From: a virus | Taxonomy: Duplodnaviria; Caudoviricetes | Length of the DNA stretch: 64,000 bases | IMG/VR virus record: IMGVR_UViG_3300008259_002461 | Strand: one strand, 5' to 3' | Shown: in pieces, positions 8,421 through 9,478 of the stretch | How positions within the stretch are numbered: position 1 is the stretch's first letter | Layout of the letters: every line of letters starts with the position of its first letter | Position numbers and translations under genes: made by a program | The notes under the pieces: generated by a model | Told to the model about the DNA's origin: nothing | The model's input: only the letters and a program-made list of their open reading frames with translations | Databases searched by the model: none

Positions 8421-9257
8421 ATGGAAAACTATTCAAGTCCTCTTCAGAAGTATAAGAGGGAACCAAAATTGTTAATTGACTTACCCAGTAAGGGAAGTTT
8501 TTACCCTCGCAACGCACTAGAAAAGGCAACTGAACTTGAAGTGTACAGTATGACAGCCAGCGATGAAATGCGATTAAAAACTCCTGATGCACTTTATACA
8601 GGCAATGCTGTTGTTAATACAATTCAACGTTGTATACCCGGTATCAAGGACGCATGGGCCATGCCTGTAATTGATGTTGACTATGTGTTAGCTGCCATTA
8701 GATTGGCAACTTACGGTGAAAATATCACTATAAATTCAAAATGTCCTGAGTGTAGTAACGAAGATGCGTACGGTATTCCAATTCAATCTATACTTGATCA
8801 CTACAATTCAGTTAACTTTATAAACGAATTTAGAATTAACAATTTTATTTTTAGAATACGTCCGTTAAACTATAGAGAATTAACTGACATACAACAAAAA
8901 AGTTTTACTATTCAGCGACAACTTAATCAATACGTGTCACAAATAGACGACCAAGAAAAACAACAAGCTGAGGTTAATAGATTATTTGACGACATTAACT
9001 CTATTACTATCAACACTATACAAAAAGTTGTTGTTGAAATAACTACGCCTGACGGTGACAAAGAAATGCATCATCAGTTTATAGTTGACTTTTTAGAAAA
9101 CGGCGAAAAAGAGTATTTTGAAGAAACTAAAAAAGTTTACGAAACTAACTTAGAGAATTGGAACATTAAGCCTAGTAGTGTTGCGTGTAGTGCCTGTAGT
9201 CACGAATATAAAATATTACCAAACTTAGACTATTCAAGTTTTTTCGGTCGAGGCTAA
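8421..9257 (+). CDS. T4 gp26-like baseplate hub/tail assembly chaperone
   Basis: IDLPSKG..YP, VYSMTASDEMRLKTPDALY, D.DYVL.AIRLATYGE, CPEC and CSAC zinc motifs, RIRPLNY. Ends ...YSSFFGRG. Confidence 0.8.
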   Translation: MENYSSPLQKYKREPKLLIDLPSKGSFYPRNALEKATELEVYSMTASDEMRLKTPDALYTGNAVVNTIQRCIPGIKDAWAMPVIDVDYVLAAIRLATYGENITINSKCPECSNEDAYGIPIQSILDHYNSVNFINEFRINNFIFRIRPLNYRELTDIQQKSFTIQRQLNQYVSQIDDQEKQQAEVNRLFDDINSITINTIQKVVVEITTPDGDKEMHHQFIVDFLENGEKEYFEETKKVYETNLENWNIKPSSVACSACSHEYKILPNLDYSSFFGRG

Positions 9258-9292
9258 TTGAGACTCCGGACTCTGCATTACCTCAATTAGCC
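9239..9292 (+). other. Programmed -1 ribosomal frameshift signal (slippery heptamer plus stem-loop)
   Basis: T TTT TTC at 9239-9245 in the correct X XXY YYZ phase, a 6-nt spacer, and a perfect 11-bp stem GGCTAATTGAG (9252-9262) / CTCAATTAGCC (9282-9292). Confidence 0.8.
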
Positions 9293-9478
9293 AAAGAATA
9301 CGAAAACGAAATTAAACAACTCAAGCACAACATCTATAAAATTTGTTGGTTCATGCGAGGCGGAGTTGCATCAGATGTATTATTCACTGACACAGATATG
9401 GATGACTTAATGATTCTTCATACTGTAATTGAAGAAAATATAGAGACTGCTAAAAAGACAGGAATGCCGTTAATCTAA
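9239..9478 (+). CDS. -1-frame C-terminal extension of the gp26-like chaperone (gp51-like or lambda T-like); absent from the ORF track
   Basis: Open frame FFRSRLIETPDSALPQLAKEYENEIKQLKHNIYKICWFMRGGVASDVLFTDTDMDDLMILHTVIEENIETAKKTGMPLI*. No ATG/GTG/TTG in frame before 9353. The stop overlaps the convergent gene's stop. Confidence 0.75.
   Translation, partial: FFRSRLIETPDSALPQLAKEYENEIKQLKHNIYKICWFMRGGVASDVLFTDTDMDDLMILHTVIEENIETAKKTGMPLI

Follow-up and report, generated by a model that had tools for sequence, protein, structure and literature searches.

A putative programmed -1 ribosomal frameshift extending the gp26-like baseplate-hub assembly chaperone of giant myovirus relatives

The stretch of DNA analysed here, referred to throughout as the window, comprises 64,000 nucleotides (nt) of an uncultured giant phage from freshwater (Duplodnaviria; Caudoviricetes), IMG/VR record IMGVR_UViG_3300008259_002461. 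It carries a gene for a protein related to gp26, which in phage T4 is, like gp51, a hub assembly chaperone (PMC3004832, Table 2), and the 3' end of this gene has the appearance of a programmed -1 ribosomal frameshift site. At the slippery heptamer U UUU UUC some of the ribosomes would slip into the -1 frame and fuse the gp26-like protein to an extension encoded there, a reading to which we assign a probability of roughly 0.85. A frameshift joining the gp26-like protein to a hidden downstream open reading frame (ORF) had already been proposed in a first-pass annotation of the window, and the proposal is supported by the comparison with relatives, which shows an in-phase signal, its conservation, coding constraint in the -1 frame from the first codon on, a covarying stem and natural fusions that are colinear over the junction. 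The features concerned are the following, with positions counted from the first letter of the window.

8421..9257, + strand: gp26-like baseplate-hub assembly chaperone gene, 0 frame, 278 amino acids (aa), the short product (from the ORF list, PF12322 and phrog_150)
9239..9245, + strand: slippery heptamer U UUU UUC (T TTT TTC in DNA) in X XXY YYZ phase (from the sequence)
9246..9251, + strand: spacer from heptamer to stem, 6 nt (from the sequence and fold)
9252..9292, + strand: putative stimulatory stem-loop with arms 9252-9262 and 9282-9292 (11 bp, perfect) and a 19-nt loop (from the fold and covariation)
9245..9478, + strand: -1 frame extension, 77 codons and a stop, residues 276-352 of the predicted 352-aa product (from translation)

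The gp26-like gene ends with AGT TTT TTC GGT CGA GGC TAA, and its stop codon (TAA, 9255-9257) sits within the 5' arm of the 11-bp stem. The -1 frame is open for 77 codons, from CGG at 9245 to TAA at 9476-9478; the earliest ATG, GTG or TTG in it is the ATG at 9353, and its end overlaps the stop end of a convergent ORF (9470..10525, - strand) by 9 nt. The predicted products are a short form of 278 aa and a long form of 275 + 77 = 352 aa, and the tryptic peptides predicted for them in the window are ILPNLDYSSFFR, which spans the shifted junction, and ILPNLDYSSFFGR for the unshifted product. On all these points, i.e. the in-phase heptamer at the end of the gene, the perfect stem six nt further on that covers the stop, the open frame with no start before 9353 and with an overlap of the convergent stop, and products of 278 and about 352 aa, the first-pass annotation was confirmed.

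The 278-aa protein matches the Pfam family PF12322 (T4_baseplate) with E 6e-14 and 52.6 bits (cut-off 24.5) and phrog_150 (baseplate hub) with E 6e-15, which bears out its earlier description as gp26-like. In the PF12322 alignment protein residues 52-275 lie on profile positions 35-218 of 219, and since the match reaches practically to the end of the profile the 0-frame product is a complete member of the gp26/gp51 family. PF12322 was the sole family above cut-off in this protein in a Pfam scan with E up to 0.1, and the window extension had no family in the Pfam or PHROG scans. The gp26-like gene is also the sole PF12322 match in the 185,762-bp IMG/VR record of the window, which is estimated to be 52% complete. 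No match was obtained by blastn of the region against GenBank phages or by a locus search with the single 278-aa protein as query. By protein similarity, the nearest annotated gp26-like relatives are the giant myoviruses Atu_ph07, Phosso and the RaK2/121Q/GAP32/CBB/BF group. The stretch is present in 20 public DNA runs from 17 studies, mainly freshwater and lake metagenomes; no RNA run is among the public runs listed with it.

With the 77-aa extension as a tblastn query, matches were found directly 3' of the gp26 homologs in Atu_ph07 and Phosso. A word-indexed search gave 5 relatives of the extension and an exhaustive HMMER search gave 78, and a collection scan seeded with an 8-row extension alignment led to 80 viral contigs. 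All of the 90 extension-bearing loci (63 distinct sequences, 20 clusters at 60% identity) carry NNT TTT TTC in phase near the end of the gene, and in all of them the extension lies in the -1 frame and measures 76-77 codons from the heptamer. The identical arrangement, with an extension of 70-76 codons, is present in nine cultured giant phages of other genera, namely RaK2, Serratia BF, GAP32, 121Q, CBB, XbC2, Salicola SCTP-2, Vibrio 2.275.O and PA5oct; by hhalign (probability 98.4%, E 9e-15) their more divergent extensions are homologs of the window type. Altogether, 72 of 72 distinct related junctions, those of Atu_ph07 and Phosso included, have NNT TTT TTC in phase and a -1 ORF of 70-77 codons after it, and every single-gene relative examined retains the slip signal. 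Elsewhere in these genes Phe is encoded by TTT 667 times and by TTC 194 times, and the dicodon TTT-TTC is a minority form (2 of 18 FF pairs), from which the chance of finding T TTT TTC given xFF is about 0.12 per lineage. The residue before FF is variable (N, S, T, H, R, D or Y) and its codon ends in T throughout. Judged from this codon usage, amino-acid constraint does not account for the invariance of the heptamer.

By the same comparison, the -1 frame is constrained from its first codon. This codon specifies Arg in 63 of the 72 distinct junctions, and all four CGN codons are used (CGG 21, CGT 19, CGC 14, CGA 9), which argues for a third position that is free in the -1 frame and not for a constraint in the 0 frame, where the same bases are read as G, V, A, E, L or D. 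In the -1 frame, conservation is also seen at positions 3-5 ([RK], [LI] and [LIV]), and the 0-frame tail past the heptamer, 1-11 codons long, shows no conservation. The sub-clade L014-L026 has Leu (CTT or CTC) instead of Arg as its first -1 codon. To judge from its protein-level conservation, which persists down to 25-34% identity, the extension is under purifying selection.

Conservation of this kind could in principle be attributed to a separate small gene, the 77-codon ORF being translated by termination-reinitiation, from a non-canonical start (ATT 9257) or from ATG 9353. In the window ATT 9257 overlaps the TAA, with GAGG just 5' of it; an ATG overlaps the gp26 stop in Atu_ph07, Phosso and two of the collected loci (L008 and L074), and a free small coding sequence (CDS) is annotated in Phosso, 121Q, Serratia BF, GAP32, CBB, XbC2, SCTP-2 and the Vibrio phage, all of which is in accordance with independent translation. 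However, a separate gene leaves the invariance of the heptamer at synonymous sites in 72 of 72 junctions unexplained, as it does the conservation, with a free third base, of a CGN Arg codon situated 5' of every candidate start. The start of the extension also stays fixed at the heptamer while the 0-frame stop shifts by 1-11 codons, and the in-frame long forms described below are colinear over the junction. ATG stands at extension codon 2 in 4 of 63 junctions. In 20 of the 63, the window included, no ATG, GTG or TTG occurs before the core Met (W[FY]MRGG, codon 37), and a protein begun at this Met would lack half of a conserved domain. Where an ATG is present, it is preceded by TTTTTTCGN, with no Shine-Dalgarno sequence. 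A proper start for the downstream frame in homologs was regarded by the first-pass annotation as an argument against frameshifting; such starts are found in a small minority (the four relatives with the overlapping ATG) and not in the window's clade. Independent initiation may thus take place in a few lineages with ATGA or a nearby ATG and cannot explain the whole data, and as a general explanation a separate gene seems improbable to us.

The long product predicted from the frameshift has natural counterparts that are encoded in one frame. In nine of the HMMER matches, 319-343 aa long, the extension follows PF12322 at the C-terminus of a single protein. The three in-frame junctions read as DNA (AAT TTT AGA TCT AGA; CAC TTT TAT CAG CGG CTA ATC GAA ACA CCC GAC; CTC TTT CGT GCT AAA) contain no T run, and the long forms are therefore not homopolymer errors. 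When the sequences are aligned, the ends of the short products (...LDxxxFF) coincide with ...LDxxxF of the long forms and the extension rows start one column further on, so that the predicted junction of the window, ...LDYSSFF followed by RSRLIETPD, aligns beside the natural ...LDPSTHF YQRLIETPD. These natural in-frame forms go no further than to show that a long protein such as the predicted one is viable. A confident single AlphaFold2 model of a natural long form was obtained with the same alignment; it reached a predicted local distance difference test score (pLDDT) of 93.6 and a predicted template modelling score (pTM) of 0.87; its extension part consists of four helices with block-mean pLDDT mostly 86-97, and 77 for the last five residues. 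The model matches viral baseplate hub and hub assembly proteins in BFVD (E 2e-13), and a fold search of the PDB and AlphaFold Swiss-Prot gave nothing significant. A word-indexed search for longer extension homologs had given none, a blank that reflects its sensitivity limit, since the exhaustive HMMER search found nine. A further candidate, P0039 (782 aa), matched in 10 stretches but proved to be a repeat protein of low complexity, and the match was rejected as spurious.

The RNA downstream of the heptamer is predicted to be structured. Positions 9225-9320 of the window fold with -20.2 kcal/mol (z = -2.9), which is equalled by 2 of 200 shuffles, and in relatives the 80 nt 3' of the heptamer have a mean of -19.3 kcal/mol (median z -2.6) compared with -11.1 for internal controls from the same genes. 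In 35 of the 63 relatives, a distance of 3-6 nt separates the heptamer from the first stem of 6 bp or more. The 5' arm pairs with a partner at a distance of about 30 nt in the window's clade, compared with about 55 nt in other clades, and this clade-specific choice of partner argues for selection on the structure and not on the sequence. For the sub-clade with the long-range stem (n=15), in which columns 12-25 pair with 70-83, 86% of cells are paired, with 5 compensatory pairs, compared with 31-51% in slid registers; for the window's sub-clade (n=9), in which columns 14-24 pair with 44-54, the corresponding values are 81%, 4 compensatory pairs and 12-41%. The covariation score was reached by 0 of 500 shuffles in either case. 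Examination of the homologs, which the first-pass annotation had recommended, thus came out in favour of its proposal both for the heptamer (72 of 72) and for the stem, which covaries in these two sub-clades.

A stem of this kind also bears on the possibility that the slip is transcriptional, i.e. that RNA polymerase adds one U in the T6 run and the same two products arise by another mechanism. Homopolymer runs are able to cause polymerase slippage (PMC5009743), and as the products are identical this mechanism would account equally well for a conserved run and a conserved -1 frame. However, a covarying hairpin 3-6 nt downstream is a standard stimulator of ribosomes, the polymerase would be served by a T run in any phase whereas 72 of 72 junctions have the same one, and the fixed C at position 7 together with the phase of the run matches X XXY YYZ tRNA re-pairing. 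Programmed transcriptional slippage sites in bacteria are generally runs of about nine or more A or T, and six T are short for this mechanism. Polymerase slippage is in our opinion a poor candidate. Ribosomal frameshifting, on the other hand, agrees with the fixed phase, the fixed C and the hairpin, which fit tandem re-pairing of tRNA-Phe on the ribosome. Motifs of the class H_HH.U_UU.Y, to which U_UU.U_UU.C belongs, are among the most efficient -1 motifs in Escherichia coli (PMC4066793); U_UU.C is the second best tetramer for -1 slippage in that host, and U_UU.U_UU.C is used by some insertion sequence (IS) elements (PMC4066793).

Homopolymers are also prone to insertions and deletions, so that the arrangement might reflect gene decay, with a one-base deletion in a once-fused gene leaving a dead remnant, or an assembly error in which T6 is a miscalled T7, and in one of the relatives (L005) the gp26 ORF is indeed broken. 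But the same T6 is shared by 90 independent loci and 11 finished phage genomes, the stretch itself is present in the 20 DNA runs mentioned above, and the -1 ORF is held at 70-77 codons with its protein conserved down to the low identities already given. On comparative grounds the breadth of this conservation excludes decay or sequencing error, to which we attach next to no probability. In L005 (European Nucleotide Archive, ENA, scaffold, 701-1417) 238 codons of the interrupted gp26-like ORF are open and the gene caller gives a 63-aa piece. A second contig with an extension identical to that of L005 has an intact 278-aa gene, and the interruption probably stems from an error of assembly or marks a defective variant.

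The programmed -1 frameshift would proceed as follows. Ribosomes would arrive at U UUU UUC (9239-9245) with their P and A sites occupied by tRNA-Phe and would be held at the slip site by the 11-bp hairpin six bases on. A fraction of them would slip back by one base, read on from CGG 9245 and produce the 352-aa long form, made up of 275 shared residues and a 77-residue helical domain, and the ribosomes that do not shift would terminate three codons on and release the 278-aa short form. The two forms would cooperate in the assembly of the baseplate hub, the efficiency of frameshifting determining their ratio, and T4 would supply equivalent short and long forms from its paralogous genes 26 and 51. 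That the slip is ribosomal, how efficient it is and how the two forms share the work are points that we infer here. Several points weigh against the frameshift reading. The case for it rests on comparative sequence evidence throughout, and the relatives were collected with a pattern derived from the extension itself, which is blind to lineages that have lost it. In the sub-clade L014-L026 no clear stem is seen at the spacing found elsewhere; a short hairpin stands about 22 nt downstream instead, and the stimulator of this sub-clade may be a different one, possibly a pseudoknot. An ATG overlaps the gp26 stop (ATGA) in four distinct relatives, and in 121Q one stands at extension codon 3; independent or coupled initiation may for this reason add to the slip or locally replace it.

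The number of PF12322 genes in a genome varies together with the slip signal. Exactly one such gene is present in each of the 8 complete heptamer-bearing genomes that matched (SCTP-2 scored below threshold), and T4 and the genomes with in-frame long forms have two PF12322 genes and no working slip site. The T4 pair consists of gp26, 208 aa with the profile on 1-206, and gp51, 249 aa with the profile on 1-201 followed by a 48-aa tail; each genome with an in-frame long form has a second, shorter PF12322 paralog immediately upstream in tandem. Four short forms from two-gene lineages were read: T4 gp26 and that of L090 encode the FF pair by the non-slippery TTC TTT, and a third (L091) lacks FF. 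That gene number tracks the slip signal suggests that both the short and the long form are needed and that frameshifting supplies the second one. In the two-gene short paralog of L092 (1019-1040) T TTT TTA stands in phase and the -1 frame is open for 17 codons, with no extension; this may be a relic of a slip site or chance.

A profile of gp51 tails (21 tails) aligned with the C-terminal half of the extension profile with a probability of 70% and E 4e-5 over 37 colinear columns, and with the RaK2-type extension profile with E 0.08. No significant hhalign result was obtained with the extension profile when T4 gp51 was used as a single sequence, and 69 extension sequences scanned against PHROG gave 0 matches to phrog_150 or phrog_634. 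The extension may well be homologous to the gp51 tail, with moderate support; the predicted long product shares the layout of gp51, PF12322 followed by a C-terminal tail. A second Pfam family, PF28602, is listed on the T4-type gp51 homologs P0087-P0178 and is presumably the gp51 tail. The first-pass annotation had taken the gp26/gp51 pair as a frameshifted equivalent of the lambda G/GT chaperones. The logic of a short and a long form was upheld; the 77-codon ORF itself had to be rejected as a gp51 gene, since T4 gp51 is itself a paralog of gp26 within PF12322 that carries 48 additional residues as a tail, and the kinship with G/GT extends to logic only. One could go further and suppose, though only tentatively and with the odds rather against it, that frameshifting was the ancestral device which set the stoichiometry of a two-form hub chaperone, with the T4 26/51 pair and the tandem paralogs as later duplications that replaced it, and that the PF12322 body binds one hub component and the helical extension recruits a second partner. 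If true, this would explain the long-unexplained need of T4 for both gp26 and gp51 in hub assembly.

No joined CDS is annotated in any of the 11 GenBank/RefSeq records that were read, in agreement with the earlier suggestion that standard annotation misses the frameshift, and a literature search found no published report of the slip site. The kind of event is known, a canonical -1 slip in a tail-morphogenesis chaperone gene of a phage, and this putative site appears, as far as we could find, not to have been reported previously. The -1 extension ORF is unannotated in RaK2 (L095 2028-2240) and PA5oct (L103 2340-2558). In Serratia BF, GAP32, CBB, 121Q and XbC2 it is called as a hypothetical protein that starts 3-13 codons in, often at an internal Met, and such truncated calls constitute phrog_18291, "unknown function".

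As for the surroundings of the locus, a 737-aa ORF (6135-8348, - strand) is divergent from the gp26-like gene. It has no significant Pfam or PHROG family and is conserved (about 720-1075 aa) in RaK2, GAP32, CBB, 121Q, PA5oct and many contigs; the RaK2 record notes a similarity to tail tape measure proteins and the PA5oct record marks detection by electrospray ionization tandem mass spectrometry (ESI-MS/MS). The convergent 351-aa ORF (9470-10525, - strand) has hydrophobic Ala/Gly-rich stretches and a low-complexity C-terminal region of Ala/Pro/Ser, with no Pfam or PHROG family, and a gene of 318-374 aa stands in its place in the metagenome relatives L003-L005, L008 and L009. Between the hub locus and a 590-aa SbcC/gp46-like ORF (11666-13438), to which a gp46 exonuclease corresponds in position in Atu_ph07, lies a 143-aa ORF (11007-11438, - strand). 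The ORFs at this place in L004 and L005 carry PF19835 (SegE_GIY-YIG), and the 143-aa ORF may be a homing endonuclease.

If the reading holds, canonical -1 frameshifting would extend to a second class of phage tail-assembly genes and would be conserved over a large group of giant myoviruses, including well-studied cultured phages that infect E. coli, Klebsiella, Pseudomonas, Erwinia and Agrobacterium, and the annotation of all these genomes would need correcting. It would also link the poorly understood gp26/gp51 pair of T4 to a logic of short and long forms that is testable in 121Q, RaK2 and PA5oct. With T4 the window protein shares its families (PF12322 and phrog_150), and T4 gp26 ends in ...FF where the 0-frame product of the window ends. 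The two systems differ in that T4 has two diverged paralogous genes of opposite transcription whereas in the window both forms would come from one gene, and in the length of the tail, which is 48 aa in T4 gp51 and 77 aa in the window extension. T4 gene 26 has in addition an annotated shorter in-frame 3' CDS (26', 95 aa), another route to two products.

Xu et al. reportedly described in 2004 a conserved -1 frameshift in the tail assembly chaperone genes of long-tailed phages, the lambda pair being gpG and gpGT. Like it, the site in the window would be a -1 slip towards the 3' end of a chaperone gene for tail morphogenesis, with two products that have the N-terminal part in common and of which one is short and the other extended at the C-terminus; both arrangements are conserved over very divergent phages and routinely overlooked by gene callers. 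The frameshift of G/GT-type chaperones is summarised in PMC5009743. There is no sequence or family relationship between the two, the window protein belonging to PF12322 and its extension having no Pfam family. The heptamers differ (G GGA AAG in lambda, U UUU UUC in the window), as do the processes served, tail-tube assembly in lambda and baseplate-hub assembly in the window, and the gene neighbourhoods: lambda G/GT lies between the tube and tape-measure genes, whereas the window gene stands beside a hub/tape-measure-like gene that is transcribed divergently. The resemblance to lambda is one of logic only and not of family. With E. coli dnaX and the sites of IS3/IS911-type elements the window shares the canonical bacterial X XXY YYZ form and a downstream stem 5-7 nt away. 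Unlike at those sites, no upstream Shine-Dalgarno-like stimulator is evident at the window slip site, and the shifted product would be the longer one, in contrast to dnaX gamma. Finally, dnaX and the IS elements serve replication and transposition, whereas the gene in the window serves the assembly of the virion.

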